Positions 9,190 to 62,000 of a DNA stretch of 62,000 nt are shown here, one piece after another (positions within the stretch are counted from its first letter, which is position 1; each line of letters starts with the position of its first letter). A model generated the notes under the pieces. It did not search any database, was not told the origin of the DNA, and saw only the letters and a program-made list of their open reading frames with translations. Source of the stretch: Chiloscyllium plagiosum (lineage: Eukaryota); NCBI RefSeq assembly GCF_004010195.1, contig NC_057753.1:2333285-2395284 (forward strand), given 5' to 3'. Both the position numbers and the translations under genes were made by a program.

Positions 9190-9600
9190 TCAAAACTACA
9201 ATGGGTAGAACCAGGGTACACTGTTAATCACGCATATAAAAATACACAAAGATTTTTCTTACAATATGCTGTACAATAAAGGCAAGCTCCTGTTACCCAG
9301 CTGCAATTTTTCTTAGTACAATATTACATTTATACATTGGACAACAAATGGCCACAATTCAATCGAATGCAAAAGCAATTGTTAACTCAACATAGCTGTC
9401 AAGGCCATCACAAATTATGGCAGAACAAATACGATATCAGACAAGAACTGATGGAATGTAAATCACAGGAAAGAACTTCTGCACTTGCTGAATCACGGGA
9501 GTTGGACAATTCGCATATTGATAAGTCTCTCTTTGAACCAAAAATCTGAATTTAAATCTGAATGAGATATAGAAACGCAGCCAGAGACTTTGGCAGCATA
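9190..9600 (-). pseudogene. Decayed GPR139-like exon 2 (TM2-TM4/ECL2 relic)
   Basis: Minus strand reads KVSGCVS..., FFPVIYIPSVLV*YRICSAIICDGLDSYVELTIAFAFD*IVAICCP, then after a frameshift YCTKKIAA, then VINSVPWF. This is colinear with LSGCVT / YFP..LRSALIYTFIDNSVWLTVTFTFDRFVAISCQ / YCTETLAA / IINNIPWL of the intact gene. Confidence 0.8.
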
Positions 9601-10577
9601 TATAGAATGAGCACCAAAGTTCATCTTTCGAGTGCGATTCTGTTCTTTGAGTTTGGTAAACGGTTGCCATGCCAGGTAGATTTTTGTCAGCAACTAGCTG
9701 GAATAAAGTGGAATTGTGTAGACACAACAGAAATTCTTGTTTATGCTATCGGTCATTGTGAAGAATTCTTAGTTTCACGAGAGCATATGAAGACAACGAT
9801 GCTGGAGTCTAGTTATCCGGGATGTCAGCTGGTGGAACGAATCAACTGACATATGTATTTGAGCCAGGCAAATGAAGATGTGGGTGCAGAATATAACTTT
9901 TCTGAGTCCATACACTTCCACTAAATTCACACATGCTAAACAGAAAAAAAAAGTCAGCAACACATGTGAGTGTGCAGTACTGGACGTAATAATTCTGAAG
10001 GCAGCAGTGAGTTCTGCAAATATCCACACCATATATAAACAAACCCACATGGACCAATATGCAAATCCACATGAACTGTTGTATACAGAATGTAACTCTA
10101 CTCAACTTCGTCTGTCTACAGAATATAAACAGCCCCACGTAGTCAAATTGATGTACTGTCTCAGAGAAAATTAACATTGCACCTGACTAGTCATTGCACC
10201 AGTACGATATTTATCATCAGTGAGATTGCACTGATTTCAATTTTTTCTGAAGAAGAATTATATTTTTGACCGCATTGTGTCATGAACACCGTGTATTGTC
10301 CAGGAAATCATAATCTGCTCCTTATATGTTTGAGAAGATGTACAAATCGTTTATATGTAATCCCTTGGTTTTTAGTTTATTACAGTGTTCAACCTCATGA
10401 AAGCAAAAACATTCTTTTCCACCTCACAAATTCAAACAGGCAGCAGATGCACTAATCTTATGATTAAATTAATATTGAAAGAACAACCATCGAATTAGTC
10501 CCCTGGTACCTGGCGTTAGGTATAATTATCACCCGTCTTCAGTGAATTACCAAATGCACTCAGAAGCTTCAGCAGAA

Positions 10578-10647
10578 ATGCACGGAATACCAAAGGGTCT
10601 GCTGTTTTCGATTTACTATCCTATCCTTGCAGTTATAGGGATTCCAG
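10578..10647 (+). CDS. GPR139-like GPCR gene A, exon 1 (MHGIPKGLLFSIYYPILAVIGIP+G)
   Basis: ATG in agaaATG context, 70 nt, ends CCAG|GTAAAG (phase 1). Joins in frame to the exon at 12784 to give TM1 YYPILAVIGIPANLVVIVILS, as in GPR139-family receptors. Confidence 0.9.
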
Positions 10648-10926
10648 GTAAAGTATTGGATTCACTTACAAACTGTGTCATTCATCGGTGAACTGCATTA
10701 TTTATACCATTTTATGAACAGTGCATCTCCTTTTATCTCTCATGATGTTTACTATCTTTGGACAAAGCAGATTGTCTTTGCTGTACCTTTGCAACTCTAT
10801 TTTCCTATCCAAAATCATTTCGAACCTGAAAGCTGTTAATTCATCATTTAGATGAAACCATCGACCATTGGTGACATAATTTCTCAGTGTTAGTGGCATA
10901 GTTTATCTTCTTGAATATTATTATAT

Positions 10927-11236
10927 GGGCGGCACGGTGGCACAGTGGTTAGCACTGCTGCCTCACAACGCCAGAGACCCGGGTTCAATTCCTGCCTCAG
11001 GCGACTGACTGTGTGGAGTTTGCACGTTCTCCCCGTGTATGCGTGGGTTTCCTCCGGGTGCTCCGGTTTCCTCCCACAGTCCAAAGATGTGCAGGTCAGG
11101 TGAATTGGCCGTGCTAAATTGCCCGTAGTGTTAGGTAAGGGGTAAATGTAGGGGTATGGGTGGGTTGCGCTTCGGCGGGTCGGTGTGGACTTGTTGGGCC
11201 AAAGGGCCTGTTTCCACACTGTAAGTAATCTAATCT
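10927..11236 (+). mobile_element. Young full-length HE1-like SINE in the gene A intron
   Basis: GGGCGGCACGGTGGCACAGTGG (A box), GGTTCAATTCC (B box), (AATCT)n tail. Absent from the paralogous introns at ~33120 and ~60270. Confidence 0.95.
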
Positions 11237-12783
11237 ATTTAACTATTTTAACATTGTACATTTTTTGTGGTGCCAATAGTATTTCACCCCGTTCAGTTTT
11301 ATTTTCATGTGACAGTACCATGCTATTGCGTCATTTATATTTTCTTCATTTCCCATTATCAAATCATGATGTGCATGCTCATTTATTCTCACCATTATTG
11401 TATAAAGCTTTCTTCTTATTGTTACAATTCAATGATATTCCTGTTTTTTATTGCTAATGCTATTCGGTTCAAGGTAATGTAAAGGTATTATAGCGTGAAA
11501 GTTCAGTTACTGAGACATTGACACTGTTGTTGGTGAATCTTTACTCCATTTTCATAGTGTAACGAGAGCCGCACTACATTTTTGATGGTGTTCCTGTATG
11601 GGGTTTATCTTACTGTTATCACAGTAAAAAAAAACTCTTTCTTTCGTGGCTGACACAATTTAAGTGGGCGATGAATAAACTGTTCTCAGCGTGTGATGTT
11701 GTGTTATTATCAATGTATTGTATGGAAATTCCACATTATCAGTGTTGATGAGGAATTATTGCACCAATCACTTTTTGAATTTGTTATGTTACGAAAAATT
11801 AAAAAGAAACTTGGCAATGAGTTTGAAATATTGGAGCAGTGTTTGCGAAATTTGATGTATCGCTTTCATGAACAGGAATTATTAGGCACAGCCATGGTTT
11901 CCAACATAAACGCCAAGAAGCTGTTGTCATGTGACAATGCAAGTGAAAATATCCTGAGATGACAGACTAAGATGCGTTTTTATTGGTCTCTAAAGCTCAC
12001 TGCTTGAATCTAATTCTTCACTTTCTCATGAGCCTCTGCTGATGGTGCTAAACTGAAAACGTTTGAGAGTCAGATTTTCTCCTGCTTTGAGCATCTCATA
12101 AAGCATTATATTTTTGAAATTTCTTTTTCCAAGTTGAGTGAAAAACCATAACTCATAGTATCCCTTAAATGTAAGATGTCACACATTTCCTTTGTTTCAA
12201 GTATCAGCGATTGGATAAAGTTCATCAATTGTTACATGGATTGCAGGCCAGCAATGATGAAGTGATTTCATGCCTGAACTCAGTAGGAAGGTCTTTCTCC
12301 GAATCAGAACCCATCATCTACCAGTTCAAACGCTTGAAGATAAGATACAATTTGCTGTACGCTTAAGAGATTTGAATTACTAAAGACCCTACCAGCGTCC
12401 AACTTATGTTATCCCTGCAGTCTCGACTGACATTTTGGTTGTGTGTTCATTTTCCTCTATTTCAGAATAACTGTAACCGAGATGACTGGTAAGTTCACCA
12501 ACAGTGATTAGTTGGGCAGTAACACACTGGAATGAATCACATTGATTCACAGTGAGGTATGATATTTGTACATTTTAGTTTCTCAGTCTGTGATTATGGA
12601 CCTTCATATTTCCTGTAATTCACTCTCGATTAGTCTTTGCTTTCTTATTCAATATGACTGCAATGCCATTTCTTGTTTTCAAATCCATAGCACTTTTGCT
12701 TTGATCTAGCTCGAATCTTTCTGTCTTCAGCGCTCTCTCTTATGAAAAACGATTTCACTCTCTCTCTCCCTCTTTTATTATAG

Positions 12784-13682
12784 CTAACTTGGTTGTGATT
12801 GTGATCCTGTCTCGAAGAACATGCGGTCTCTCTGGCTGTGTCACTTATTACCTGGTGTCAATGGCAGCAACAGATCTACTGGTCGTAGTCACTGCAGTCC
12901 TCTTAAATCGGATTGCTGGGATTTATTTTCCAATGAGTTTCCTGTCCATCACTCCACTGTGCAGTTTGCGTTCTGCATTAATTTATACATTTATAGACAA
13001 TTCTGTCTGGTTAACAGTCACTTTTACCTTTGACCGATTTGTGGCCATTTCCTGCCAGAAGCTGAAAATACGATATTGCACTGAGACATTGGCAGCACGG
13101 GTCATAGGAATCGTGTCCACCCTGAGTTGTATTAAAAATGCCTTCTTATATTTTGTATATGAACCAATGTACATAATTAACAATATACCGTGGTTGTGCA
13201 GCCTTAAAGCTATATATTACTCGTCACCTGCGTGGGTTGCATATGATTGGATGTGGATCATTGGAACTCCCTGTCTCCCATTCATTTTGATTGTACTGCT
13301 CAATACCCTGACCGTTAGACATGTTCTCACCGCCAACAGAGCCCGCAGGAGAGTTTCGACTAAGAACAATGGAGAGAACCAGAGAGACCCAGAAGTAGAG
13401 AAGCGTCCAAAGTCTATTGTTTTACTTTTTGCCATCTCTTGCAATTTTATCCTACTCTATTTGTTTTTCATGACAACGACCCTCTATGTCCGAATTGGCA
13501 ATGTTTCTTATTTCTCTGTTTCTGATTCCAGTGAATCAACGTTCGTTCTTGAGGAATATGGGTTTATGCTTCAGCTTCTGAGTTCCTGTATCAACGCCTT
13601 CATTTATGTCGGAGTGCAGGCTAAATTTAGAGCAGAATTAATAAATGGTGTGAAATATTCATTACGGTTATTACGTAAGTAA
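12784..13682 (+). CDS. GPR139-like class A GPCR gene A, exon 2 (total 322 aa)
   Basis: Pyrimidine tract and TAG acceptor at 12781-83. Uninterrupted ORF with TM2 MAATDLL, C3.25, DRF, TM5 TPCLPF, TM7 SCINAFIY and helix 8 KFRAEL. Confidence 0.93.
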
Positions 13683-14800: not shown

Positions 14801-15859
14801 TTCACTCCTTTGAATCTATGAAGAATGTGTTTTAAAAATATCTTCCACAAGATAATCATGCTTTTCTCCTGTCTTATTACTTGCAGTTCTTGCTTCTCAG
14901 TCATTCAGTGCAATTCAAGAAAGTAATAATAGAACGAAAGAGGGCTGTAAATGTTTTTCCCTTTACATTATTGCAAGTCAATTTTCATTCTACGGTGACT
15001 AGGGTGAGAATGAGGCAACAATATGAGGTCTGTGGTAGTTGGTATTGCTGAATCCCAATGTCCAGTTGACAATTTTCCATTTGTATATGAATAGTGTTTA
15101 GATCCACCGTTTCGTGAACGCCCATTGTCATTTCACTTGTTTGTGCAAGTAGAGAAGCAACAGAATATTCCATTAACCGGTCAAAATGCATTTCTCAATC
15201 AGCAACAGGTTTTAAAAAATGCATTCTCGCCATTTGTTTCATTGTACCTTTATAAGTTTGTCATGTTCAAATTGACAACTATTGCTTCAGCCGCCTTCCA
15301 ATCCTGATCCATGCCGGTGGCACAACAGTCAAAGATATTATGGCTGTTCGCAAACAGATTTAAAACGTGTGCTCTTCAAATTTCCATGAAGAAAAAGCTA
15401 TAGGTAAATACTGAAAACGCAATTTCAATATTTTCTCATGAAGACCATCCTCGCATTAGACATTCCTGCAATTTTGGAAATATTATTTACATTTGCCTTT
15501 CGTCCAGGGACTTTGGAATATGTAAAACATTTCGGGTCTTGAACCGACTTGATTTGGAAAAGACTGACATAACATTTAGCATGTACAAGTAGAATTGGGC
15601 ATCATCAATACAACCATTCGGAAATAGTCATGTCAGCACTGAACATAATCCCGACTGAACTGAATATATCAGAAAATGCTGGCAATACAGAAAAAAGACC
15701 AGAAAACATCAGTGGAGAAAGAATAGCAGTTAACTCTTCAATGCTTCTTGTTACTCCTGCAATGGTTACTGTCCTCGATCAGTCATACTGTTCCAAAGTA
15801 AAGGCCTTTTAACATATTCAGCGTTGGGAAAATATGGCATCAACTGAAGCATTCTCCTG

Positions 15860-16500
15860 GAAATTATGGTAATAGATTTTACAATATCAGTGGTCATGCT
15901 GCAAGAGGTACATGGTCAGTTGAGACCAATGGCTTAGTTCTCACACATGAACACACTGGTGACGCTTCAGTACACAGCATGTGAAAGGAACTTATTGGTA
16001 GTGTTCTGGGCAGTACAAAAGTTAATCTACATTGTAGGCTTGAAACCATTGACAATTTTGATGAAACATCCACCCATCCCGATATGCATGGACGGATGTA
16101 CTAAAGGTGGCACCATTAGCTAAACATGATTGCTAGATGGATGCTGCTATTACAAGGGAGAAACATTGAGGTATAAGGGGTTAAATGTACTACTATGTGA
16201 GCAGATAATTGATTTACCAGGGGCCACTCCATGACTAAGGGTTGGTGATAGCAAATGATTCCAAGGCATCATTTGTAACAAAACAAACAGAGGGAAAAAC
16301 TTTTAAAAAGATCACAGGGAATATTCAAGACAGGAGACAGTTTGAGCCAGAAGTGGGGGAAATTTAGGAGAATTCCAGATCACCTGTGAACCATTTTATT
16401 GACAGCTCCTCATCAGTACAGAAAGGTCAACGGGACAGAAGGGTTGTGACCTCTATGCAGAGGATGAACAAAGAGGGGAAGTTGATGACATAGCAAACTG
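15860..16500 (+). mobile_element. Retrovirus-like pol fragment (tether plus start of RNase H), inverted paralog of ~25160-25870
   Basis: Reads LQEVHGQLRPMA..., CERNLLVVFWAVQK and FIDSSSS. DNA is homologous to the reverse complement of 25200-25800. Confidence 0.7.
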
Positions 16501-16699
16501 TCAAAGAACACGAGTGCCAAAGCAAATAAGATTGACAGAGCACCTTCTCTGTCGGAGGTGAGAGGATTTGTAACTGTCGATAGAAACACGCGACCATCCA
16601 TTTCCTTAATGTGATCCATGTTCAAAAAGGTGAAAATAAGAGAAAATGGAGTAATGAAAATAAAGGCTCATTACAAGTTATCACCAACCTCCAACATTG

Positions 16700-17290
16700 C
16701 ATTCTCATGGTCCTCAAAGTTTCGCAGTTTCCCCATGGTGGGAGCTTTTCTTGTGTCATCTGGGTTTATGACAAACAGAACGGGTACTCTTCCCACCAAG
16801 AGTGATGAGATTTTGATCCCCTAAGCTGAGTAAATGGGTTGAAACACTTTTCACTGTCAGCGCACCGAATCGCCCTCACTCGAGTCTCTCAGTATTCTTC
16901 CTGCTGGACCAGTATCCAAATATTCTCAAGCAGTCAAAACCAAACATTTCTTTACGATTTGAAACGCGCTGACATTCAACTCCAAATGATTCAAATGATG
17001 CTGTCAGAAGTTGATGCATCATTTTCTTTCAGGTTTCTTTCCAAGAATTCCTCCAAACAAAATCACCAAATAAGTGATCACAGTTGATCAAGTACAGTTG
17101 AACAAACATCACATAAATGGTATTTCCTGTAGATTGTCAGATGCCTGCTGACCACATATTATCCAGGACACAGAAACCTGAAAACCCTCTTGCAGCCAGT
17201 TAGCCTTTAGTATATCTGGAGAAAAACTTAATTTAGGTGACAATGACCTATAACAAGTTGCCTACAAAGGTACTGGAAATATAATTGAAT
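16700..17290 (-). pseudogene. C2H2 zinc-finger gene relic (start of the finger exon plus upstream intron)
   Basis: Direct homolog of 18770-19230 and 47140-47720. Minus strand gives APTMGKLRNFEDH, similar to MGKPWKC. Confidence 0.6.
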
Positions 17291-17309
17291 CGAGGATAAG
17301 AAAGGTAGG

Positions 17310-18720
17310 TTAATTGTTTAAAAGCTTACCTCAAGTGTCAGGAGCCTCCATTTGCAGCTGGAGCGAGGAACGGGGTGCTGCTGGGAAGGTAAATGAATTG
17401 TTTAAAAGCTTCCCTCTGGAATACGTGGAGCGCACACTGAGCAGGTGCGGACACAGGTTGGCTGGGTAAGTAAGGTAATATATTTGGGCGGTCGCTTTAC
17501 CTGAAACAGTACCCAAGTAGTGCCTCCCACTCATCCCCTTCCTTTAACTGAAAAAAAGGATTCTGTGCGCTGGCTTGGTAAGTTACGTTCTCTCTCGCTC
17601 GCGCTCGCGCTCTCTCATCCTCTCTCTCTCGTTCTCTCTCTCTTGCTCTCTAATAGTCTCTGAGGGAATTCGAACAGTGGGATTGGAGGTTAGAGCAGTT
17701 GAATGCTCCTCCCAATGAATCAAGTGGCTCTGTCAGAAGTTGATGTATCATTTGTTTTCAGATTTCTTTCCACATATCTTCCTGCAAAAATAAACTCACA
17801 AAATAAGTGATCACAGTCAGTACAGTTGAATCAACAGAACGTAGGTAGCAATTCCTGTAGATTGCCAGATGCCGGCGGATCACATATTACCCAGGACACA
17901 GAAACGGCAGATGGGTTTCAGTCAGGGTCACCACTAGTATCCCCACTGACTTCATACACGGCAAATTCACCCATCTCCAGCTCCTCAAGAACCACTTGAG
18001 GCAACTGTAACTGGGGATGGATGAACTTCGGATCATCCAGGAGGCAGCGGGGGTAATTGAAAGGAGTTACATGGAGGTAGTCGCACCTCAGATACAAGAA
18101 AAAAGACAGATGGGTTTTAATCAGGGAAAGAAAATGGAACTGGCACATGTGCAGGGGTCCCCTATGGCCGTTCTCCTCAATAACAAGTATACCATTTTGG
18201 GTACTTTTCGGGGAGACGACTTCCCAAGGTAAGCCATGGGGTACAGGTTTCTGGCACTGATTCTTTCCATGTTGTCAGAGGGAAGTGCTGGTGGTGGGGA
18301 GGTGGCGGAAGAGCAGATCATTTGTCATTGGGGACTCCATAGTCAGGGGAACGAACACAAGATTCTGTGGGAACGAGAGAGACTCACAGTTGGTGGGCGG
18401 CCTCGCACGTGCCAGAGTTCATGATGTCTCGGATTATGTTTTTTGGGATCCTAGAGGAGGAGGAGGAGCAGTCCCAAGTTGTGGTCAAGATAACACCAAC
18501 GACATAGTTAGGAAAAAGGACGGGGATTTAAGGCAGAAATTCAGGGAGCTAGAGTGGAAGCTTAGAGTTAGAACAAACACAGTTGTTATCTTTGCTTTGT
18601 TACCCAAGCCACTTGCTAGCGAGACGAGAAATAGGGAGAGAGAGGAGTTGAACATATGGCTACAGGGATGGTGCAGCAGGGAGGGATTCAGATACTTGGA
18701 TAGTTGGGGGTCATTCTAGG
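17310..18720 (+). mobile_element. CR1 LINE 5' UTR and ORF1 (SGNH/GDSL esterase) remnant
   Basis: ORF 18285..18719 has VIGDSIVRG...TNDI...LNIWLQGWCSREGFRYLD. Interrupted at ~17716-17915 by a zinc-finger-gene fragment. Confidence 0.88.
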
Positions 18721-20340
18721 TGAACGGGTCTGTGCATTTCCAGCACCGATGGGAAAGGGAATCCATTCCCACAGTCCCCAAATTTCCACACTTTTCCTGT
18801 GAGGGGAGCTTCCCTTGCGTTGCTCTGGGTTTCAGATGACAAGCACAATGGGCACATAGTCTTTCCCCACCAAGTGTGGTGAGATTTTGATCCCCCAAGC
18901 TGAGTAAATGGTTTGAAGCACTCTTCACAGTCATCACACTGAATCTCCCTCACTCGGGTCTCTCAGCATTCGTCCTGTCGCACTAATATCCAAAATCTCT
19001 TAAGCAGAATGGCTGCTGATGTTCAAGTCCAAATGAATCAAATGGCTCAGTCAGAAGTTGATGTATCATTTGTTTTCAGATTTCTTTCCACGTCTTCCTG
19101 CAAAAATAATCTCACAAAATAAGTGGTCACAGTCAGTACAGTTAAATGAATATAACATAGTTAGCAACTCCTGTAGATTGCCAGATGCCTGAAGATCACA
19201 AACTACCCAGATCACAGAAACGGCAGATGGGTTTCAGGCAGGGAATGAAAAGGGAACCGGAAGTTTGTGCAGGGGTCCTAGAGCAACGGAAGGAAAGTTC
19301 CCCTCAAGGAGAAACTGTACAAATGTGGGGACTGTGGGAAACCCATGGGCAGCCAGCTATCCTTATGGATACATGGACAAAAACTCATTTAGGTGAAATG
19401 ACTGGTAACGAGCTGCCTACAAAGGTGCTGGAACTGCAGCTGAATCACAGGCATGTTAATGAAATGTCAGGGCTGCTTGAGGAAAGAAAGCCAGTAAAGT
19501 TGCTGAATGACTTTCTGCTTCCCTATTAAATAAAAAAAAAACAAGAAATACAGGATGTTACTCCAATACGATATCAGTTGAAAAATAATAGCCATGAAAC
19601 GTTCACAACAGCGAATAATATCAGATATGCAACACATGAAGCAACATACATGCACATTTTATTTCAATGTGCCAATCCCTTAAAATTTGCTCAGTTATAT
19701 GAGAAATTATCCTATTAATAGTGACATGGGGAAAGAAGCAGTCCTTTATTTGGGTGAAAATTGTGTACGTTTCAAACTGAGGGATACAAAATGAAAATAC
19801 CGTAAAGAGGAACGCAGACTATCTCAGTACTTTTGTAGAGTCTGCTCCGTCCATGGATTCACTCAATTCTGACAAGTGAGCAGTGTCTCTCCACACACAC
19901 ACACCCACCTCCCCCACCCTCTCTCGCTCCCTCTCAGGATGAGGAATGGAAAAAGGGGCACATTGATTTGGTCCCATATATTGCCCAGATGAAAGGATTT
20001 TCCCTGTGTTACTGACAAGGCTACTTTCGCGTTGTGACGACCACAATTGGGCCGGGGCGGACAGTGGGCCTGCACTGTGCCTGCAACGCCCTGCAGCTGA
20101 GGCACGTGGGAAGGGGCAGAAACTTTGCAAACTCCCTTTGCTCTCCTCCAAGTCAATGCAGTTTGAGTTCAAGCATAGCAGGGGGTTACATTTCATCTTC
20201 ACACTCACAGAAAACATCCCCCTGTGTGAATCCAACACTTAATTCCCCCCACCATTCCATGGAAGTAGCGATTTGTGAGACACCATGTTTAGAAGTGTTA
20301 CCAAAGCTACTGTTAGGGAATTGGCAGAAACTGTTTCTTT
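18720..20340 (-). pseudogene. C2H2 zinc-finger pseudogene with upstream GC-rich promoter-like region (~20040-20110)
   Basis: ORF 18711..18953: CDDCEECFKPFTQL..H and KVWKFGDCGNGFPFPSVLEMHRPVH. Minus-strand acceptor TTTTTGCAG|GAAG at ~19100. Whole block is directly homologous to ~47090-48620. Confidence 0.72.
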
Positions 20341-21075
20341 TATAAATCATTTCAATTCAATCTCCACCATTAGTGGAGTGCTGTCAGCTGTCGAGGCCAT
20401 GAGCTCTGGAGTCCGTCCGTAAATCCCCTCTCTAAGATCCTCCTTCAAATCTAGCTCTTCGAATGCAGTTTCTGATTAATTTTGAAGGAACTATCGAGGC
20501 TTTACTACGTCAAAGTTTCAATATAAATGCAAGTTATTTTTTGTTATTGCCTTACATTAGGAGAACAGGAATTTCACATGAACATTTTGATTTCTCAGAC
20601 TATAATGTCCGCAGTCATAATTGGACTGTACACTTGAAAATGCCGTTCAATCAATAATAGATACAAGCATGACGTCAATCTCAGATTTGGCAGCACGATT
20701 CCAGAATTCCCCATTCTTCTTGATGTGTCGAAACCCATTTGTAGAGGGTCTCATGTTCCATGTTTCTGTAGTGGCCCATGCCTTTAGTTTGCAAAATGAC
20801 TGCCTGGAGCTTTTTAGCAGATTCAAAATGACTACAGATGCTTGACAGTTACATATGGCAGATGTTCACAGCCAGATTTGTGACCTCCAGACGGATCACC
20901 GGATAAGAAAATAAGAGAGAGAAGACAGGGTTGTGTCGTCTGGCGTTCCTCATAAGGGAGGCACAGATGAAAACCATTTCAGCAAAATAATGTAAAAGTT
21001 CCATTACTATAGAGCAGAAGGGGAAACTGGACCCACTTAATTAAAATGATTTCAGGAAATTGTAAATAATAAATA

Positions 21076-21077
<2 letters not shown>

Positions 21078-21122
<45 letters not shown>
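21078..21122. repeat. (CA)n microsatellite
   Basis: About 22 CA units. The inverted paralog at ~164-178 has only about 7 units. Confidence 0.97.
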
Positions 21123-21124
<2 letters not shown>

Positions 21125-22199
21125 TATATACATTCGTACAGTTATAGTGGTGATTTCAGTTTCAGTCTATCAGACTTTGGGGTATAAAGTTGCATTTCAG
21201 TACACAGGCAGTTTTAAGCGCACAAGTGTTTCTGATAGAAAGCATCCTATACGATGTGTTGAGCCATCTCTGGCAGTGCTGCTTTACAGCACCGGGGCAT
21301 ACGTTCGATTCAACACTTACGTGACTGTCTATATGGAGTTTGTATATTCTCCTAGTGTCTGCGCAGATTTGTTCTGATTACTTCCCAAAGTTCAAGAATG
21401 TGCAAATTAGATGACTTGGCCATGCTCAATTGCCCATTGTAAGCAGGAATGTGTAGGTTAATTACGATAATATTGGGAATTGCAGAGATACATGGATATG
21501 GTAGAGGATTGGGTCCGGGTGGGATTCTCTTCAGTGGCGCCATGTGGACTTAACTGGCCAAATGGCCTGCTTCCATACTGCTTCTATGATGAAATGTCTC
21601 GGAAAAACATGCCTAAATTTTATATTTGAGCAAGAATTAAAATAATTGTTTGATCCCACAAAAACCAAGATTCATTGGACAATTGTCATTGCATACTTTA
21701 GTATTGTGAAATGCAACTTATAAACATCCAGGAAGGGAGTTAATTGAGTTTTAGTGAAAACCCAACTGTACACCGGAAAAAAAGGCCTCCTCGCAGGGAA
21801 AACGAAGCGACAAATCGGGTCAGCAGCCAATCTCTTAGAGAACAGAAGAGATTTTAAAGCATGGAAAATAATCAATTGCAGCTCAAGTGCAGATCACTGA
21901 GTCCAATGATGAAGGGAAAGATGGCAGAAACTGAATTTCACCCTCAGCGATGAAATTCGAATCGGTGCTATCTCATTTAGTAAGAAGTTCCAGTCTAGGA
22001 TGGAGACAATAAAGTTTATTGACAAATAAACTTTCGCTTCAAATTAATTTGCAGCATGCAAACAGCAGGGGTCGTAAACTGTAGTTGCAAAACAGAGAGA
22101 CTGTGTTTGATCTCCCAGGATTGAGCAAAAGAGAAGCTGTCCTATATTTGTCAGGCTTGTTAAAGAACAATAACACGAAATGTAAATATATTACTTTAT

Positions 22200-27608: not shown

Positions 27609-28519
27609 TCACAGGTTGAGGAACTCACGTAATAACCTCAATGGATATTTCACCCCATTCATTAATTCTGCTCTGAATTTAGCCTGCACTCCGGCGTAAA
27701 TAAACGGGTTGATGCAGGAACTCAGAAGCTGAAGCATAAATCCATATTCCTCAAGAACGAATGTTGTTTCACTAGAATCAGAACCTGAGAAATAAGTAAC
27801 TTTGGCAATTCGGACATAGAGGATCGTTATCATGAATAGTAAATAGAGTAGGATGAAATTGCACGAGATGGCAAAAAGTAAAACGATGGACTTTCTCCGT
27901 TTCTCGACCTCTGGGTCACTCTGGTTCTGTCTATTGTTCTGATACCGGACTCTCCTGCGGGCTTGATTAGCTGCTCGAACATGTCTGACTGTCAGAGCAT
28001 TCAGCAGTACAATCAGAATGAATGGGAGACAAGGGGTGAGAATGGATCGCATCCAGTCAAATGCAGCCCAGGCAGGTGATGTGTAGTATATAACCTTTAG
28101 GCTACACAACCATGGTATATTGTCAATTATGTACATAGGGTCATACACAAAATATAAGAAGGCATTTTTTATACAACTCAGGGTGGAGACGATTCCTATA
28201 ACATACGCAGCCACCATCTTAGTACAATATCGTATTTTCAGCTTCTGGCATGAAATGGCCACAAATCGGTCAAACGTAAAAGTGACTGTTAGCCAGACGG
28301 AACTGTCTATAGATGCATAAATCAAGGCAGAACGTAAACTGCATAATGGAGTGATGGAAAGAAAACTTAATGGAAAATAAATCCCAGCAATCCGGTTTAA
28401 GACGACAGCAGTAACTATGACCAGGAGATCTGTCGCTGCCATTGACACCAGGTAATAGGTGATACAGCCAGAGAGGCCACATGTTTTTCGAGACAGGATC
28501 ATAATAACGACCAGGTTAG
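27609..28519 (-). CDS. GPR139-like class A GPCR gene B, exon 2 (total 326 aa)
   Basis: Minus-strand acceptor ttcatcacAG|CTAACCTG. Intact ORF with DRF, TPCLPF and NPFIY. About 85% amino-acid identity to gene A by manual count (~46 differences in ~298). Confidence 0.93.
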
Positions 28520-33384: not shown

Positions 33385-33454
33385 CTGGAACCCCGATAAC
33401 GGCAAGAAAGGGATAGTAAATGGAAAACAGCAGACCCTTTGGTATTCCATGCAT
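33385..33454 (-). CDS. GPR139-like gene B, exon 1 (MHGIPKGLLFSIYYPFLAVIGVP+G)
   Basis: 70 nt, CCAG|GTAAAG donor, phase 1, in frame with the exon starting at 28519. Confidence 0.9.
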
Positions 33455-36732: not shown

Positions 36733-36744
36733 CACTAGCACCTG

Positions 36745-41554: not shown

Positions 41555-41723
41555 CAGGTCAGGCAGCATCCAGCGAACAGGAGAATCGACGTTTCGGGCA
41601 TAAGCCCTTCTTCAGGAACGTCGAATCTCCTGTTCCCTGGATGGTGCCTGACCTGCTGCGCTTTTCCAGCAACACATTTTCAGCTCTGATCTTCAGCATC
41701 TGCAGACCTCACTTTCTCCCCAT
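41555..41723. mobile_element. Penelope-like pLTR foldback insertion upstream of orphan exon 1
   Basis: 12-bp target site duplication TTTATTACCATG (41543-54, 41724-35). Empty at paralogous sites ~10380 and ~59745. Hammerhead core on the minus strand at 41584-41618. Confidence 0.88.
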
Positions 41724-41926: not shown

Positions 41927-41996
41927 ATGCATGGAAAACCAAGTGGTTTACTGTTTTCCATTTACTATCCCATCCTTGCAGTTATCGGGATTCCAG
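41927..41996 (+). other. Intact GPR139-like first exon C with no cognate exon 2 (MHGKPSGLLFSIYYPILAVIGIP+G)
   Basis: 70 nt, ATG, CCAG|GTAAAG. About 1 kb of upstream sequence is homologous to gene A. Intron homology stops at ~42065. Confidence 0.85.
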
Positions 41997-46760: not shown

Positions 46761-46769
46761 TCCTATCCA

Positions 46770-47490
46770 GCAACAGTGGCAGCCGAACGGTGTATCCTCG
46801 GTGTACCCACTTGTGGATCAGCAGTTTAGATGACTGAGTAAACTCCCTCCAACACACGTAGCAAAGGAAGGCCTTCTCTCCCATGTGGAACCTCTCGTGC
46901 GTCTGCAGGTTTCACATCTGACTGAATCCCTGCCAGCTCACTGAGCAGGTGAAAGGCCTCGCCCCGATGTTGACTGGCAGGTGTGTCTGCAGCTGGGATG
47001 GTTGAGTGAATCCTTCCACCCATCGACAGCAGACGAACACTGGTGCATCAGCAGGATGCACAGCCAACTTAAATTCCTGGTATCAACGTGCCTGTGCATT
47101 TCCAGCACTGATGGGGTATGGAATCCTTTCCCACAGATCCTACATTTCCATGGTTTCCCCATGTATTGCTCTGGGTTTACCGGCTAGCTTAATGACAAAC
47201 AGAATGGGTACACAGTCTGTCCCCACATTGCATGGTGAGATTTTGATTCCCCAAGCCGAGTAAATAGTTTCATGCACTTTTGACATTCAGTGCATTGAAT
47301 CTCTGTCACTCGGTTCTCTCAGTATTGTTCCTGCCACACCAGTGTCCAAAATCCCTCAACCAGACAAAAGCAAGCATTATTTCTCGATTTGAATGGCTGC
47401 TGATATTAAAGTCACAATGAATCAAGTCGGTCTGTCAGAAGTTGAATGATCATTTGCTTTCAGATTTCTTCGCAGATATGTTCCTGCAAA
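46770..47490 (-). pseudogene. C2H2 zinc-finger pseudogene (several degenerate fingers); upstream region extends to ~48620
   Basis: MGKPWKCRICGKGFHTPSVLEMHRHV, GEAFHL and MGEKAFLCYVCWREFTQSSKLLIHKWVH occur in shifting frames. Minus-strand acceptor TTTTTGCAG at ~47485. Confidence 0.85.
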
Positions 47491-49899: not shown

Positions 49900-51605
49900 A
49901 CCAAGGTGCCACGGTCAGGGATGTCTGTGATCGAGTCCACAGGATTCTTAAGGGGGAGTGTGAGGTGTCAGAAGCCGTGATACACACGGTGGGAAGCTAA
50001 ACGTCAGGACGCACAACGTAGTAATTTTAAGATTGCTACCGCAGCCATTGGCAAGTGATGGTCGTGTGAAGGGACATTGGATGACCAGACATGCGGAACA
50101 TCTCGTCATGAGGAAGAAGGGATCTTACTTAATTTTGAGGAGATAAAGATCAGACAGTGCTCTAGATGGTTGCAAGTTAGCCAGGTAGGAACTGAAGAAT
50201 GGGCTTAGCAAGGTAAAAGTGGGCAAGAAAAAAGCCTATGCGGTTAGGAAAAGGAAAACCCCAAGGCATTCTACACTTATGTGAGGAACAAGACGATGGT
50301 CAGAGTGCGGGTAGGACCGGTCAGGGATAATAGAGGGAGCTTGTGTCTGGTGTTCGAGGAGGTTGGAGAGGTCATTAATGAATACTTTACTTTAGTATTC
50401 ACTAGTGAGAGGGACATTGTCGTTTGTGAGAAAAGAGTGAAGCAGGCTCATATGCTCGAACAGTTTGATGTTAAGAAGGAGCATGCACTGGAAATTTTGA
50501 AAGACATGAGGATATAGAAGTCCCCTGGGCGAGATGGGATATAACCCAAGGTTTCTTTGGAAATCAAGGGAAGAAATTGCCGTGACTTTGGCGATGAACT
50601 TTGCATCCTCACTGTCCACTGGAGTGCTGCCAAATGAGTGGAAGTTGGCAAATGTCATTCACTTGTTCAATAAAGGGAACAGGGACAACAATAGGAATTC
50701 TCGACTAGACAGTCTTACATCAGTGCTGGGCAAATTATTGGAGAGGATTTGTGATTATTTGGACAGGCATAGATTAGATTACTTACCGTGTGGAAACAGG
50801 CCCTTCGGCCCAACAAGTCCACACCGACCCGCCGAAGCGCAACCCACCCATACCCGTACATTTACCCCTTTAACCTAACACTACGGGCAATTTAGCATGG
50901 CCAATTCACCTGACCCGCACATCTTTGATTAGAGACAGCCATCATGGCTTTGAGAGGTGAAGGTTATGCCTCACAAAAGTTCTTGAATTCTTTCAGATGT
51001 GACAAAACACATTGATGAAGGTAGAGCCGTGCATATGGTGTACACGGGTCAGTTTCTCCATGATAGGATTATTCTGAAAGTAAATAGGTATTGGATATAA
51101 GGAAATCTGGCTGTATGGTGACAGAATTGGCTGGTCCAAAGAAGACAACGAGTGGCAGTCGATAGAAAGTATTCAGCCTGGAGCTCGGTGACTGAGGTGC
51201 TCCGCAGGGATTTGTTCTGGGACCTCTTCTCTTTGTGAATTTTATAAATGACTTGGATGAGGAAGCGGAAGGATGAGTTTTCAAGTATGCTGATGACAGG
51301 AAGGTTGATGGAGATGTGCATAGTGTTGAGGGCTGTTGAAGTTTGAAACAGGACTCTGACAAGATGCAGAACTGGACTGTGAACTGACAGATAGAGTTCA
51401 TCTGGAAAAGTGTGAAACAATTTATTTTGGATGGTCGAAGTTGGATGCAGATTACGGGGTTAAAGGCAGGATTGTTGGCAGGAACAGAGGGGTCTTGAAT
51501 TTCACGTTTGTAGATGTCTCAAAGATGCCATCCAAGTTGACAGGGTTGTTCAGAAGGCGTATGGTGTGTTGGCTTTCATTAGCAGCGGGATTGAATTTAA
51601 GAGCA
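49900..51605 (+). mobile_element. Degenerate CR1 LINE (ORF1 piece plus ORF2), with a nested young 5'-truncated HE1-like SINE at ~50770-50927(-)
   Basis: RVHRILKGE, RVRVGPVRD, WKLANVIHLFNKG and KYADD motifs. The SINE segment is the reverse complement of the 3' half of the 10927 copy. Confidence 0.87.
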
Positions 51606-52334
51606 ATACTCCTAAGTGTTTCTGATGAAGTGCATTAACAATAGTGAAAGACAATGAAGAAAACGTTTACATGATAGTCAATCACAGAGGCCAGATTTCT
51701 CGGGGAAGGCAATGTCGACTCCTTATTGCTGTGCCACCACCACTGTCTACTAATGGGACATAATATACTTATGAATGTCTGCAAAATGCGATTTGCTGTG
51801 TCTGACAATGGCAAATTTGCTTGCCTGGAAAGTGATACAGTTTTTCCAATTTTGATACTGGCTGCCAGATGTTAGGAATGACAAATATGTAAGGTAAACA
51901 TGTAAGTGAGATCATTCTGAAGTTTCTTTGTCTTTCAGAAGAACGTTTTTAAGTCGCATTCCATGAAAACACAAACATCAGCTGACTCGTAGCCTCATTT
52001 CCTTTCAATATACAATAATAAACCTGAAACACAAAACCATCTAATTATCTCCCTCGAACCTTGCATCAGGTATAAATTTTACCAGTTCAATGCAGGCTGC
52101 CAAAGGTTTCAAATCATCTAATAGAATTACACAAAGAACTAACATTTATGTCCATTTCCAAGTAGTATATGGTGCTTGCAGCTGTCAGAGTTTCAGATCA
52201 ATTATTGCAGTCAATTAATCACTGTGGAAATCATATGTTTGGTACATCGATTCTACAATTTAACTTATACCGGCTTCCAATATGTTCTGTCTGTCACTGA
52301 CTGAACAGTATGCTTTTGTTCTCAGCTGAATCTA

Positions 52335-55300
52335 AATTGACGACCCCAGAGTGTGGCATTTTCACTGTTCCTTGCACAAGGAACTGCATCACATAGACTG
52401 CATCTTCTCTGTTTCCCGACATGGATGAAACGCCACCACAAGAAGCATCGCTGACATTGTTTGTAACACTGCATGGTTCAGACAGAAACAGGAAAACACA
52501 GGCCTGTGCCACAGATACATTATTGAAAAACTAAATAACAATTTTGTATGTGCCTTCACTGAACATATGGGCGGCACGGTGGCACAGTGGTTAGCACTGC
52601 TGCCTCACAGCGCCTGAGACCTGGGTTCAATTCCTGCCTCAGTCGACTGACTGTGTGGAGTTTGCACATTCTCCCCGTGTCTGCGTGGGTTTCTTCCGGG
52701 TGCTCCGGTTTCCTCCCACAGTCCAAAGATGTGCAGGGTCAGGTGAATTGGCCATACTAAATTGCCCGTAGTGTTAGGTAAGGGGTAAATGTAGGGGTAT
52801 GGGTGGGTTTCGCTTCGGCGGGTCGGTGTGGACTTGTTGGGCCGAAGGGCCTGTTTCCACACTGTAATATAATCTAATCTAAAAATCTATAATCAATCTA
52901 ATATTCGTTTTTTTAAAAAATAATATCTCAGAATGAGTCATTCACTGAATGAGGGACGCTGAGAAAATGAAAAAGAAAATGATTAGGAGTGAGAAATATG
53001 GATTGAAAAAATAGTGGAATTGAAAGATGACAAATGCCTCAAAATCTAACGTTCAACACTCTATTCTAATTATTTCACAGATGGAGTGAGGAGCTACGGT
53101 TTCAGATAATGCATTGTTCGCGATCTATCAAAATTCAGGAGATTCTGAAGTGATTCTTGAAGATTAAAAAATAACAAATGCAATCCCATTAGTTTATGCA
53201 GAGCCAAAAATAAAAGGGGAATCTACAGATTTGTAAGTCTTCCATCAACAGTTGGGAAAATACTTGCGTCTGTTGATAAGGGTGCTGCTGTTGTTTTCTG
53301 GGATGCTAATGTCTACCTTGCAGAAGCTCAACGCCTATGATGAGGCAATAAACATTATTGCTAATGAGTATTGGTGATGAAGGGAGTGGATGTTTGTGCA
53401 TGTAATGCCAATCAAGTCAGCTGCATTGTCCTGGAAGGTGTCAAGCTTCTGGAGTGTTCTTGGAGCTATACCACTGGTGAATATTCCAACGTACTCCTGA
53501 CTTTGCCTTCAAGATAGGGAGCATGACTTGTAGAGTCAGGATAAAAGTTATAGCCCATATAGGGCCAGTCCAGTTCACTTTCTGGACAACCATAATATCC
53601 TAGTAAGTTACCAGTGAGGGATTTAGTTATTGCAATGCCAATGAATGTGCAGGAACGATGACTAGATTCTCGTTTTGTTGGGGATAGCCATCGCTTGGTG
53701 CCTGTTTGATATAACTATTGCTTGCCACATTTCAGCTCAAATGTGGATAACAGTAAGCTTGATGTGCATTTGGACGAGGACCACTTCAGTATCTGCGGAA
53801 TTGTGAATTGTGATACATATTCTGGAATTACCTTTGAACGGTCTGAGTATCATTGATGAAACATCTGAAGGTTCTTGGATTGAGCACAGATGTCAGAAAT
53901 GTCCAGGTGCTGAGATCACTGGCCTCTACCAACCAGAACTATGGAGCATCTAACAGATATGCGTGCAGGCAAAGAACAGCTTTTCGTGATACCTACTCAT
54001 TCCAGTTAGGATCTAAGACCTTCAAACAACACTTGGTGAAATTGGCCTTGACGACACCTGAGTTCATGAATTAAAACTGTTTGCCCATCTTTGAGCCAAA
54101 GCTGTAATGAAGTCACGACTTTAGTGGAAAACAGGAGCCCAAATGGACATGACTGAGCAAGGCATTGCTGAGCTGGTAATGCTTGATAGCGCTGTTGATT
54201 AAACCTCCATCACTTGGCTGATGCTCGAGATTAGACAGATTAGATGGTAATATATTGGATTGGATTTGACATATTATTATGTACACGACAGAGTGGGACA
54301 ATTTTGTCCATTGGCAAGGAGATTCAGTGCTGCAGCTGTACTTTATAGGCAAGATGAGAGGTCTATGGAATTCCTAAACAATTTGCAGCACTGCTTCCAG
54401 GACCCATAATATTTGCATATCTAATGACTCCAATCTGTTCTTGATAACACGTGCAGTAAATGGAATTGGTTGAAGATTGGTATCTGTGTTGTTGGGAAAC
54501 ACTGGAGGAGGCTGGAATGGATCATTCTCTTGGCTCTTTTGGATGTAAATTCTGGCAATTTCTTCAGCCTTACCTTTTGCTCTGATGTGCTAAATTGAGC
54601 AGAAGGGTTTTTGTTAGCCTCCTCCGCCGTCTCCAGCAGTGATTTGTTGGATTATCCACCATCATTTTTGAAAATGTGACAGCAGTGCACAACTTCCGTT
54701 TGATCCATTTATTAGGAATCGTTTGACTTTGTCTTTTACTTTGCAATTATGCTGTTTGGCAGACGAATAGACCCATTGGTACGTTTGCCATGTTGGTGCA
54801 TCGTTTTATGTCTTGTGCTGTTTCTGTCTTACCCTTCTCCTTTCTCAATTGAACATCCTCTGCCTTGCTGGCCATGATAGAGTGAGTCAGTCCTTGAGAT
54901 TGAAGATGACACTGGAGTACAATTCTGTTGTTGCTGAGGGTTCACAACACCTTTGTGTTGAGTTGCTAGATCTATTCAAAATCTGTTCCATTTCCCACAG
55001 AAATTGTGCCACATAGTTTTGTGGACGGCATTTCCAATGTAAAAGCGGGACTTGTGTAAAGAAGAGCAGTATGGTAGTCATTCCTACTAATATTGCCGTG
55101 GACTAATGCTTCTGTGGCGAGCAGATTTATGAGGTTAGGCATCAATATTTATTTTGTTAGTCCCATCACCGTTGCCCTCCTCCAGCAGCTGTGCACTTTA
55201 GAGTGATGCATATGATCTGCTTGGGTTGATACTTGTATCACTCTGGACGATTGCACATCGAACGATACAAACTGGATATGAAGAGACAGAATGTGACCAT

Positions 55301-55972: not shown

Positions 55973-56042
55973 ATGCAAGCAATACTAACAGGTATGTTGT
56001 TTGCCATTTACTTACCCGTCCTTGCAGCCATTGGAATTCCAG
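55973..56042 (+). other. Intact divergent GPR139-like first exon D (MQAILTGMLFAIYLPVLAAIGIP+G); in-frame upstream ATG at 55949
   Basis: Same 70-nt length, agaaATG context and CCAG|GTAAAG donor as the other first exons. Confidence 0.82.
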
Positions 56043-57562: not shown

Positions 57563-57836
57563 CACTTTTAATTGATTGTTTAATTGATTCCAACAATGCT
57601 ACGTCAACAAAGCATTTATCGAAAACAATGCATGCAGCTCTATCTCTACAGGCTACCTTATGTATTTTAAGTAATATTATGCGATCCCGTTACTGTCCCT
57701 TTTTCTAGATCACACAATCTAACTGCCCTCGAATCTTTGTGTTAGCTGGTCTATATAAATTGACTCTGAGTACAGTCTATCTTGTTCCACTTCACTCTTA
57801 TTATCTCTATCATTTCTCATGACTGTTACCACCTGA

Positions 57837-58669: not shown

Positions 58670-58960
58670 AATAGCAATGGGTAGAACCAGAGTAAACTTA
58701 ATTATGTATATGGGTCTTTATAAGAAATTCACAAGATTTTTTAATATAATGTACAATAAAGGCAAGGTCCTCTTACACACGCTACCACTTTCTCTGTGCA
58801 AATTTAAATTCTTGTATCAAATGACAACAAAGCAATCGAACGTGAAAGTATTGCTATCAAGTACGGCATAGATTACATCAGAACAAATGCTACACCAGAC
58901 AAGAAACTGGATAGGAAGAATGATCACGATAATGCAAAGTTTGCACTTAATGAACAGGCG
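58670..58960 (-). pseudogene. Decayed GPR139-like exon 2, paralog of 9190-9600
   Basis: Minus strand gives TFTFDCFVVI*YKNL, IKKSCEF and RPIYIIK (compare TFTFDRFVAISCQKL, IKNAFLY, EPMYIIN). DNA is colinear with 9190-9480. Confidence 0.75.
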
Positions 58961-59940
58961 AATTCCACAGATTCACAACTTTAAACCAGAAATCTGAAAA
59001 CATTGACGAAATGCAACCAGAAACGCCTGCCATATCAATACTTCTTTTGTAAGCCACGAGCTGAAATACAGGAGATTGTGTGTATATGAGAGAGATTTTA
59101 GTCTCGGCTATCCTTTATTGTGAGCGAGTGTTGTTTCGGCAGCATATGCATACAGCTATGCTGAAATCTAGTTATCCGGTTTGGTAGAGGCTTGAATGAT
59201 GCTGGTGACATATGAATTCTCTGAATGAATATGAATTAATCTGAAGCTGTAGATGTAGAATATAACTTTACTGACCAGAAGAAAAATCACTAACTTAACA
59301 CGCACTAAACAGAAAAAAGTAGCAGCAAACGTGAGTACTGGATGTGATCTTGCTTAATGCAACAGTGAGTACTGCAGCTATCCGCGTCATACATAACAAA
59401 ACCCACATTGTTCAGTATACAAATGCTGAACCAGGCACCTTTGTAGACACAATCTAATTCTGCTAAACGTAGGCCTGTCTACAAGATGTAAACGTTCCAT
59501 GTAGTAAAAATAATTTACCGTCTCAGAAAGATTAAGCATTACACCTGACTAATCATTGCACTGGTAGTAAATTTATCAGAAGTGAGATTGCACGGATAGC
59601 AATTTTTCTGAAAAGAATGATATTTTTGAGCATACTGTGTCATGAAAAATGATGTTTTGCGTCGACACTCATCGTCTGCTTTTTGTATATTTGATAAAAC
59701 ACACAATTTGTTTGTTATATAATGTCTTGGTTTTTCACTTTTTTACCATGACAAACCTCATGAAAGCAAATACATTCTAATGCATCTAACTAAATCTAGC
59801 AGGCAGCAAGTGCAGTAATCGTATTGTCGAATTAATTTTAAATGAACAACAATCTAATAAGCTCCCCTGGTACTTGGCATTGGATATAATTACCAGCAAT
59901 CTTCAATGAATTTCAGAATACGCTGAGAACATCAGCAGAA

Positions 59941-60010
59941 ATGCATGGAATACCAAACGGTTTGCTGTTTTCCATTTACTATCCTATTCTTGCAATTATC
60001 GGGATTCCAG
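59941..60010 (+). CDS. GPR139-like gene E, exon 1 (MHGIPNGLLFSIYYPILAIIGIP+G); exon 2 expected beyond the window
   Basis: 70 nt, CCAG|GTTAAG. Downstream intron 60011-61300 is colinear with the gene A intron up to ~12340. Confidence 0.82.
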
Positions 60011-61469
60011 GTTAAGTATTAGATTTACTGAGTAACTATATCAATTATTGCTGAACTGCATCATTCGTACCCTTTCATCAACAGAGCATCTGCTTTTCCC
60101 TCTCATGATGTGTATTATCTTTCTTCATGGTCGATTTTCTTTCCTCTAACTGGTCTAAGCCATCCACCTATATAAAACCTTAACGCCATTAATTCATCAT
60201 TTTGATGAAAACATCTACTGAATGGTGACATAATTTCTCAGTATTAGTAGCATAATTTTCTTCTTGAATATTGTTGCGCAATCACTTTAGCAGTGAACAT
60301 TTCTTGTGTTACCATTATAATTTGATCCACTTTCAGTTATATTATCTTGTGACGATACTACATCATTGTGTTTTTTAATATTTTCAGCGTTTGCTATTAA
60401 CAATTCATCATGTACATAAGATTCGATTTTTTCATTCATTTTGTGTGAATCTTTCTTCTTGGTATTACAGTGCAAATACACCCCTATAATATGATTGCCA
60501 TTGCTGTTGAGGTCATGTAATGTAACGGTATTAAAATGTAAATGTACAGTTGGTGAGACATTGGCAATGTAAATTTTGAACTGTTATCTCAATGTAACTG
60601 GCGTCCATCTATATTACTGGTGACGTTATTGTATGTGGTTCACCTTATTTTTATCACTGTATAAATATTGTTTGTTGCGTGGCTGACACTATTTAAACGG
60701 GCAATTACAAACAGTTCTCAGCGTGTCATGTGTTATAGTCTACATATTGTGTGTAAAATATCACAATATTATTCAATGTAAATGAGGAATTACTGCATTA
60801 TTCACTTTTTGAATTCGTGATGCTACTGAAATACTGAAGTATGCTTCCCTAACTTTGATGTACAGTTTCAGATAAAATGCTGGTAAACTCTTATCATTTA
60901 ACGAAGATATTGTGATTGTCCATAGATGACAGAGCAGGCTGTTTTTTCCTCAATCATTAATACTCACTTTGAATTCCATTCTCCACTTCCACATGATCGA
61001 CCACTGGTGTTACTGCACTGACAACTGTTGACAGTGAGATTTTCTCTTGCTTCCAATTCTGACAATAAGTAATATTTTCTTCTACTTTCAGCACTTTTTC
61101 CAAGTAGAGCGGGAAATCATAACTGCAAGCATCTCTGAAATGAAAGGCACAGCATTCCTATTTCAAGTATAAACTGCAGGATAAATTTAATCATTTATTA
61201 CATGGATTTCTGGCCAGTACCGATGAAGTGATTTCGTGCCAGAATTCAGTAGGAGGGTATTTCTCTGTGTCAGAACTCTTCATCTGCGAGTTCCAATGGT
61301 TTAAGAGAGGGTTCAGTTTGCTCAAGAGGTCTGAATAATATTTAGAAGATGTGTGCGTACCATTCAGAGAATTAAAAGCAACAGAACTGCCGGACAGAGC
61401 AGCCCATGTTCTCGAGAAGGTATCAATGTAACACTCTGTCAAACATTTCGATTAGCTTGTTGCCTGGAG

Positions 61470-62000
61470 ACTAAAATAGTATTTTCCATCATTATTTGCT
61501 GTGGAAAAGGACATGAAAGATATAGAATGTAGGGAAATACATGGTCACGTGTTGAAAATGTCCATATTACAGAGGAGGAAGTGCTGGACGTCTTGAAACT
61601 CATAAAGGTGGAAAATTCCCCAGCACCTGATCAGGTGTACTCTAGAACTCTTTGGGAAGCTGGCGAAGTGATTGCTGGGTCTCTTGCTGAGATACTTGTA
61701 TCATCCATGCAGTGAGATGCCGGTAGTCTGGAGGTTGGCTAACGTGGTGCCACTGCTCAAAAAGGGTGATAAGGACAAGCCAGGGAACTATAGACCAGTG
61801 AGCCTGACCTCAGTGGTGGGCAAGTTGTTGGAGGGAATCCTGAGGGAGGATGGACATGTATTTAGAAAGGCAAGGACTGATTAGGGATAGTTAACATGGC
61901 TTTGTGCATGGGAAATCATGTCTCACAAATTTGATTGAGTTTTTTGAAAAATAACGAAGAGGATTGATGAGGGCAGAGCGCTAGATAAGATCTATATGGA
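61470..62000 (+). mobile_element. CR1 LINE ORF2 fragment, running off the window
   Basis: WRLANVVPLLKKGDKDKPGNYRPVSLTSVVGKLLE. Confidence 0.92.

Follow-up and report, generated by a model that had tools for sequence, protein, structure and literature searches.

Background

Among the G protein-coupled receptors (GPCRs) of class A, the closest described systems to the genes reported here are the orphan receptors GPR139 and GPR142, which are activated by L-Trp and L-Phe, and the coelacanth, gar and teleost orphans that Rinne et al. (2019; PMC6504862) placed beside them under the names 'GPR210A/B', in a study that has no shark data. Protostome MIP/sex-peptide, FMRFamide, myosuppressin and proctolin receptors, together with nematode Srw-type receptors, have been assigned to the same GPR139/142 supergroup (PMC8514136). 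We have analysed a 62,000-nucleotide stretch of the genome of the shark Chiloscyllium plagiosum (contig NC_057753.1, positions 2,333,285 to 2,395,284; the window, to whose positions all coordinates below refer), which carries two open two-exon genes, A and B, of a large receptor family related to GPR139. The explanation that accounts best for the data overall, and to which we give close to even credence, is that the window represents a portion of a single cluster belonging to a chondrichthyan class A GPCR family that works as a ligand-sensing repertoire.

The shark genes have two exons in common with GPR139 and share with it several sequence motifs, namely GxPAN in transmembrane helix 1 (TM1), S-x-W in TM3, WI..P..LN in TM5, LFxI in TM6 and ML..L..IN.F.Y in TM7. 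They depart from it in that (i) GPR139 is a single conserved gene, whereas the shark family comprises tens to hundreds of copies, (ii) a pair formed by Cys 3.25 and a cysteine of extracellular loop 2 (ECL2), with the accompanying hairpin, is present in the shark family and lacking in the GPR139 alignment, and (iii) E3.32, W6.48, P6.50, R6.51 and N7.39 of GPR139 are replaced in gene B. As for the protostome and Srw-type receptors, 7tm_1 is combined with Srw/Srx in the Atlas look-alikes at 0.96-0.98, identity is about 23% for the one unnamed relative measured, and the expansions are independent. The olfactory receptors (ORs), trace amine-associated receptors (TAARs), vomeronasal type 1 receptors (V1R/ORA) and T2R taste receptors resemble the shark family in their large clusters, birth and death of genes, very short N-terminus, variable pocket and conserved inner face; in contrast to these families, the shark coding sequence is interrupted by an intron in TM1. 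The shark proteins matched 7tm_1 only and none of the olfactory, V1R and TAS2R families of Pfam, and no OR, TAAR, V1R or T2R was among the PDB matches listed.

Two open receptor genes in an inverted duplicate

Gene A is encoded on the forward strand by a first exon (10578..10647), which specifies the N-terminus and the outer half of TM1 and ends in a GT donor, and a second exon (12784..13682), which completes an open 322-aa receptor with a match to Pfam 7tm_1. Gene B lies on the reverse strand, with exon 1 at 33385..33454 and exon 2 at 27609..28519 completing an open receptor of 326 aa, and its intron holds a long interspersed nuclear element (LINE) and two N gaps. In both genes the first coding exon is 70 nt long and is followed by a GT-AG phase-1 intron that falls within TM1, after the GxP codons; a matching phase-1 TM1 intron is presumably present in human GPR139. 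The two intact genes, and the mixed orientation of the units (A forward, B reverse and further first exons forward), had been proposed in a sequence-only reading of this DNA, and both proposals hold. The Pfam matches score 65.6 bits for A and 75.1 bits for B, against a cut-off of 30.5; together with seven modelled helices plus helix 8 and the Foldseek matches described below, they identify the two proteins as class A (rhodopsin-like) GPCRs.

Genes A and B form a tail-to-tail inverted duplicate with 66-79% DNA identity across exons, introns and flanks. Exon 2 is 85.5% identical at the DNA level and the intron 72%, and the proteins differ at 48 of 322 residues (85% identical). Nonsynonymous and synonymous divergence (dN and dS) between the two are 0.08 and 0.44, a dN/dS ratio of 0.18, and the coding sequence is under purifying selection. 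The product of gene B is 95% identical to protein P0001 of Hemiscyllium ocellatum and 87% identical to a whale shark protein. Gene A is possibly the less constrained of the pair and under relaxed constraint: ten of its residues, including P295A and R232P, occur in none of 82 aligned relatives, as against four residues of gene B (a comparison that favours B, whose orthologue is among the 82); its branch in a 37-row tree is longer (0.10 vs about 0.06); and the first AATAAA/ATTAAA past the stop codon lies at 3 kb, vs 0.44 kb in gene B. We considered P295A as a mark of a dead gene and rejected it, as T stands at 7.50 in 62 of 87 broad representatives of the family; P7.50 is dispensable in the wider family, and gene A is therefore not callable as dead.

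A family spanning the cartilaginous fishes

A search with the gene B protein gave 3,517 candidates, 1,248 of them at E<=1e-3, a figure that is no gene count, since it refers to 90% clusters that include isoforms, alleles and mis-joined models. The best 120 of these 1,248 matches comprise 119 named shark proteins and one unnamed protein, with 73 from the horn shark (53 on one contig) and 18 from the whale shark (13 on one contig). Among 50% representatives, 131 matched the family profile at E<=1e-30, and all 20 of the high-scoring representatives looked up were chondrichthyan, from sharks, skates, rays and Callorhinchus. Subfamilies that are 35-55% identical are numerous and have been retained across sharks, rays and a chimaera. 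When two whole-genome runs from the same or a very close species were aligned to the gene B stretch, 527 and 600 contigs matched, concentrated on exon 2, of which 368 and 406, respectively, were less than 90% alike to gene B; the depth of contigs shows many paralogues and gives no copy number. The proposal of a strongly expanded, clustered birth-and-death family related to GPR139 is supported; what had been described as a lineage-specific expansion spans instead sharks, skates, rays and a chimaera.

Published accounts credit sharks with few olfactory receptors and with few GPCRs overall (PMC11979771, PMC8455134). For the catshark the count is 8 OR/OR-like, 3 ORA, 3 TAAR, 2 TARL and 32+3 V2R genes, about 50 in total (PMC11979771), which is fewer than the horn shark members of one subfamily (73 among the best 120 listed). 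Whatever its function, a family of which a single shark has at least 73 distinct proteins changes the shark GPCR count. The genes of the family are already in RefSeq under the misleading automatic name 'probable GPR139', and no published description of the chondrichthyan expansion was found in the literature searched, which included part of the whale-shark supplement files. Marra et al., in PNAS in 2019, are said to mention many GPR139-like sequences in the white and whale sharks.

Relationship to GPR139, GPR142 and GPR210

That these genes are not GPR139 orthologues had been argued before and agrees with our results, given an identity of about 27%, different residues at most ligand-pocket positions and a family that is not single-copy. 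The family consensus shares about 75 identities over 276 residues with human GPR139 (about 27%; 22% in Foldseek), the zebrafish and human GPR139 proteins being 70% identical (PMC7318219), and human GPR139 and the TRH receptor each reach 51 bits with the family profile. Outside the chondrichthyans, the closest matches are a salamander gene and proteins of coelacanth, teleosts and amphioxus, almost every one of which is auto-named GPR139. The salamander orphan (P0219, P0271, P0274) is represented in Pleurodeles, axolotl and Lissotriton by forms that share one 90% cluster, and no amniote relative was found among 30 representatives looked up. Among solved structures, GPR139 is the best match of the salamander relative tested (53 bits), of the coelacanth one (70 bits) and of the amphioxus one (129.5 bits), and the profile match to the amphioxus 'GPR139' has a probability of 99.7.

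Trees were built with IQ-TREE from 64 rows (fast) and from 37 of those 64 that were chosen to keep the deep branches; both are trees of relatives and hold no true GPR139 or GPR142 sequence, for which searches via the amphioxus relatives returned amphioxus proteins and one weak unnamed match only. In the 37-row tree, 26 chondrichthyan and two salamander rows form a clade (100/99) in which the salamander branch is long, the coelacanth and two other rows form a separate clade, and amphioxus falls outside; forcing the six bony-vertebrate rows together was rejected by the approximately unbiased test (p-AU 0.029). The vertebrate clade has support of 81/61 in this tree and an SH-aLRT (approximate likelihood-ratio test) value of 99.7 in the 64-row fast tree, and chondrichthyan monophyly excluding the salamander gene appears in 50% of the bootstrap trees of the 37-row set. 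In the tree, the conserved salamander gene is nearer to the shark family than any other bony-vertebrate sequence, and the coelacanth and teleost orphans come next. Shark and ray proteins pair inside subclades (100/99, 100/96), and the diversification is therefore older than the split between sharks and rays.

The coelacanth and teleost matches, which are 25-33% identical to gene B, are probably 'GPR210': they are not GPR139, and they fit the description of GPR210A/B. The coelacanth record is, judging by its accession numbering, a candidate GPR210B. These candidates lie farther from the shark family than the salamander gene does (100/99), and the latter offers a single tractable stand-in for an ancestral ligand search.

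N-terminus, motifs and ligand pocket

In the model of P0001, which has a predicted local distance difference test score (pLDDT) of 72, there are seven helices and a helix 8, ECL2 forms a hairpin and the N-terminus is 7 residues long; helix 1 starts at residue 8, in keeping with the short N-terminus (about 10 residues) noted earlier. The N-terminus measures 7 residues in 77 of the 82 aligned relatives, none of which has a glycosylation sequon there, and all 82 keep both Cys 3.25 and the ECL2 Cys. The top Foldseek matches are peptide and chemoattractant receptors at 15-22% identity, including GPR15, CXCR2, C3aR and CCR receptors, in a flat series (E 4e-8 to 7e-7) that singles out no receptor and says only 'class A'.

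The sequence-only reading had used DRF in place of DRY and the TM6 sequence ISCNFILLY as arguments against GPR139. Both are present, but they carry less weight than was claimed: DRF/ERF is found too in coelacanth, amphioxus and an invertebrate relative, and TM6 of human GPR139 reads LWAP, itself without the C of CWxP. W6.48 is retained in 75 of 87 broader family representatives and Y takes its place in 70 of the 82 subfamily relatives, so that the change from W to Y is a trait of the subfamily, whereas P6.50 has been lost throughout the family, with P in 9 of the 87 broad representatives.

The pocket of GPR139 has been described as F109, H187, W241, N271, R244 and E108 (PMC7318219), with E108 reported as not important (PMC5430874). 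Mapped by motif offset from the alignment and not by measured contacts, F3.33, H5.43, W6.48, N7.38, R6.51 and E3.32 of GPR139 correspond to Y, R, Y, F, F and I in gene B. Position 6.51, which is R244 in GPR139, holds R or K in six of six amphioxus and seven of seven bony-vertebrate relatives and R in only 5 of the 87 broad representatives; the basic residue is mostly lost in the family. We compared variability at 27 generic class A pocket positions, likewise placed by motif offset and not by measured contacts, with that at 76 other outer-half membrane positions and obtained 1.22 vs 0.91 bits in the 82 close relatives (p 0.016) and 2.84 vs 2.21 bits in P0001 plus the 87 broad representatives (p 0.0003), p values that are optimistic for sequences that are related and in many cases from one species. 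The outer membrane halves are more variable than the inner ones (0.99 vs 0.54).

Further first exons and exon-2 relics

Beyond genes A and B, the three additional intact 70-nt first exons reported earlier are all present on the forward strand, each with a GT donor: C (41927..41996), D (55973..56042) and E (59941..60010). The homology of exon C with gene A ends about 70 bp into the intron, while exon D is divergent and closest to another subfamily (P0087), its homology being confined to the exon itself; no exon 2 for either is present in the window, and C and D may be orphans or alternative first exons, a candidate status. Downstream of exon E, which has the donor GTTAAG, the intron stays homologous to that of gene A as far as 61322, where LINE sequence follows; because this homology runs until the LINE, E is probably the start of a third gene with its exon 2 past the end of the window. 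The three intact exons (41927, 55973 and 59941) have the same orientation with no exon 2 between them, and C, D and E could also be alternative promoters of one downstream exon 2. The earlier list of first exons missed a sixth, F (52127..52196, forward strand), which is dead, having an in-frame stop and neither ATG nor GT donor; its nhmmer E value is 0.003, vs 5 for the best hit in a reversed-window control. A partner exon 2 lies within the window for only two of the six first exons.

Three exon-2 relics had been claimed, of which we found two, both of them copies of one old pseudogene. Copy 1 (9208..9471, reverse strand; nhmmer E 1e-13) runs from the end of TM2 to ECL2 with stops and frameshifts and scores 19.7 bits against the protein profile, vs 3.9 in the reversed control; copy 2 (58685..58891, reverse strand; nhmmer E 1.3e-9) repeats copy 1, having travelled with the upstream block. 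One relic lies some 1.1 kb upstream of exon A and the other at the same position upstream of exon E, within a continuous 72%-identical block, and the two therefore record a single gene death that was copied twice. No third relic was detected in the window by nhmmer, a relic-trained profile, sliding local alignment or a broad protein profile (best E in the reversed-window control, 6); the segment 10142-10435, a 6.1-bit match full of stops, was gone with the broad profile and was rejected. The two-exon genes have been copied in either orientation as several-kb blocks, among which dead and orphan parts occur.

Function and alternative explanations

The family as a whole is probably a repertoire for detecting many chemicals, because its signalling face is conserved, its pocket is variable and free of the N-terminus, and many subfamilies have been kept across the cartilaginous fishes. 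The ancestor of such a family would have been an orphan receptor from the GPR139/GPR142/'GPR210' group. Each paralogue may bind a different small ligand, for example an amino-acid derivative, a metabolite or a short peptide, in a pocket that would be capped by the disulfide-tied ECL2 hairpin with the N-terminus contributing nothing, and signalling would proceed via the conserved cytoplasmic side, probably through Gq/Gi as for GPR139, which couples to Gq and, according to the title of a PDB entry, to Gi. We tentatively favour chemosensory cells of the nose, mouth, gill, skin or gut as the most likely single site, a role with which the anatomy is consistent. If the family is chemosensory, a vertebrate chemoreceptor repertoire has arisen independently once more. 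The boldest form of this idea, which we regard as doubtful, is a fifth, hitherto unrecognised chemoreceptor repertoire of cartilaginous fishes that outnumbers all their known OR, TAAR, V1R and V2R genes combined and arose from a GPR139-related orphan surviving as the conserved salamander gene; if true, it would resolve how a keen sense of smell is possible with about 50 odour-receptor genes.

No indexed RNA run contains gene B. One single-cell run, from an unknown tissue, yielded 24 partial paralogue reads among 13 million records, all of them less than 90% alike to gene B, and a second run of the same sample yielded 0 reads; some paralogues appear to be transcribed at a low level, genomic carry-over being possible.

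Several observations weigh against a ligand-sensing repertoire of chemosensory cells: (i) these 24 reads are the sole RNA, with none from gene B and the splice joint invisible; (ii) immunity and skin nerves likewise have GPCR families that are large, clustered and variable in their pockets (FPR, MRGPR); (iii) members adjoin zinc-finger and TRIM genes, and duplication-prone DNA may drive part of their number; (iv) the 1,248 protein clusters, the contig depth and the p values of the pocket comparison are subject to the limits given above; and (v) the catshark paper lists no GPCR among the top 50 genes of a brain-plus-olfactory-epithelium library and regards V2Rs as the main receptors of the nose (PMC11979771).

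The alternative that survives best is an immune or barrier repertoire, in which leukocytes, mast-like cells or skin nerve endings would detect microbial, parasite or damage-derived peptides or metabolites in the manner of FPRs and MRGPRs; we consider it rather unlikely. The same variable pocket and conserved inner face fit it equally well, and GPR15, CXCR2, C3aR and CCR receptors stand among the top Foldseek matches, but that flat list denotes class A only, the relatives group with GPR139 and not with chemoattractant receptors, and the 7-residue N-terminus is without the region used by chemokine receptors. Fused C2H2 (P0101) and TRIM (P0170) neighbours and the zinc-finger relic in the window would also suit an immune setting, yet mammalian olfactory clusters too lie among ZNF and TRIM genes. 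TRIM69 has been reported as expanded in cartilaginous fish (PMC7677710), a further point in favour. Were the role immune, the oldest group to have adaptive immunity would possess a large family of innate sensors.

A receptor for one internal ligand may instead have been multiplied largely passively, by segmental duplication in repeat-rich clusters, leaving copies that are mostly redundant or decaying. Neutral flanks were indeed duplicated along with the units, as were a pseudogene relic and relics of transposons, only two of six first exons have a partner in the window, and gene A carries more residues absent from its relatives than B does, in a set that favours B. Against this stand the dN/dS of 0.18 between A and B, the persistence of subfamilies at 35-55% identity in sharks, rays and a chimaera, and the concentration of variation in the pocket with conservation of the inner face, and we judge such an origin improbable. 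It is very improbable that the genes are true co-orthologues of GPR139 (or GPR142) and respond to L-Trp and L-Phe, in spite of the database names, the two exons (PMC7318219), the tied place of GPR139 as best solved-structure match, the shared aromatic 3.33 and the His at the H187 position in many members, given identity of about 27% vs 70% for the zebrafish orthologue, the equal 51 bits of the TRH receptor and the failure of gene B to retain E3.32, W6.48, R6.51 and N7.38/39.

Neighbouring sequences and repeats

The DNA of the window has about 40% GC and contains three N gaps, LINEs and short interspersed nuclear elements (SINEs). A neighbour that is not a receptor is the relic of a C2H2 zinc-finger pseudogene at 46801..47153 on the reverse strand (tblastn E 2e-7, in-frame stop), the 5' region of which (47085-48630) is present again as partial copies at 16700-20364; the pseudogene and these copies are interspersed between the receptor units. 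Database models in which zinc-finger (P0101) and TRIM (P0170) neighbours are fused with family members show that receptor clusters are interleaved with genes of these two kinds. Downstream of gene B lies the relic of a long terminal repeat (LTR) retrotransposon RNase H (Pfam RT_RNaseH; 25531-25860, reverse strand), to which a stretch downstream of gene A (15539-16507) is homologous, and the insertion is therefore older than the A/B duplication. LINE reverse-transcriptase remnants, which we take to be CR1-like, occur at 3330-4900, 29110-30690, 50280-51480 and 61730-62000; one is within the gene B intron and one within the exon E intron, and the remnants contain two of the three N gaps.

An inverted duplicate of 1-900 and 20364-21286 is 89% identical and much younger than the receptor duplications. 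Young SINE copies at 10923-11237, in the intron of gene A, and at 52565-52881 are 96% identical. Imperfect palindromes of 100-340 bp, 83-86% self-complementary, were found at 36395-36732, 39047-39228 and 41554-41656, the latter two being one short interspersed repeat in head-to-head pieces. Two hydrophobic open frames of some 100 codons each, homologous to one another, lie on the reverse strand at 9778-10101, upstream of exon A, and at 41031-41315, upstream of exon C. They were considered as receptor parts and rejected, being below every Pfam cut-off and only as similar to each other as the surrounding upstream DNA, and they are probably due to chance.

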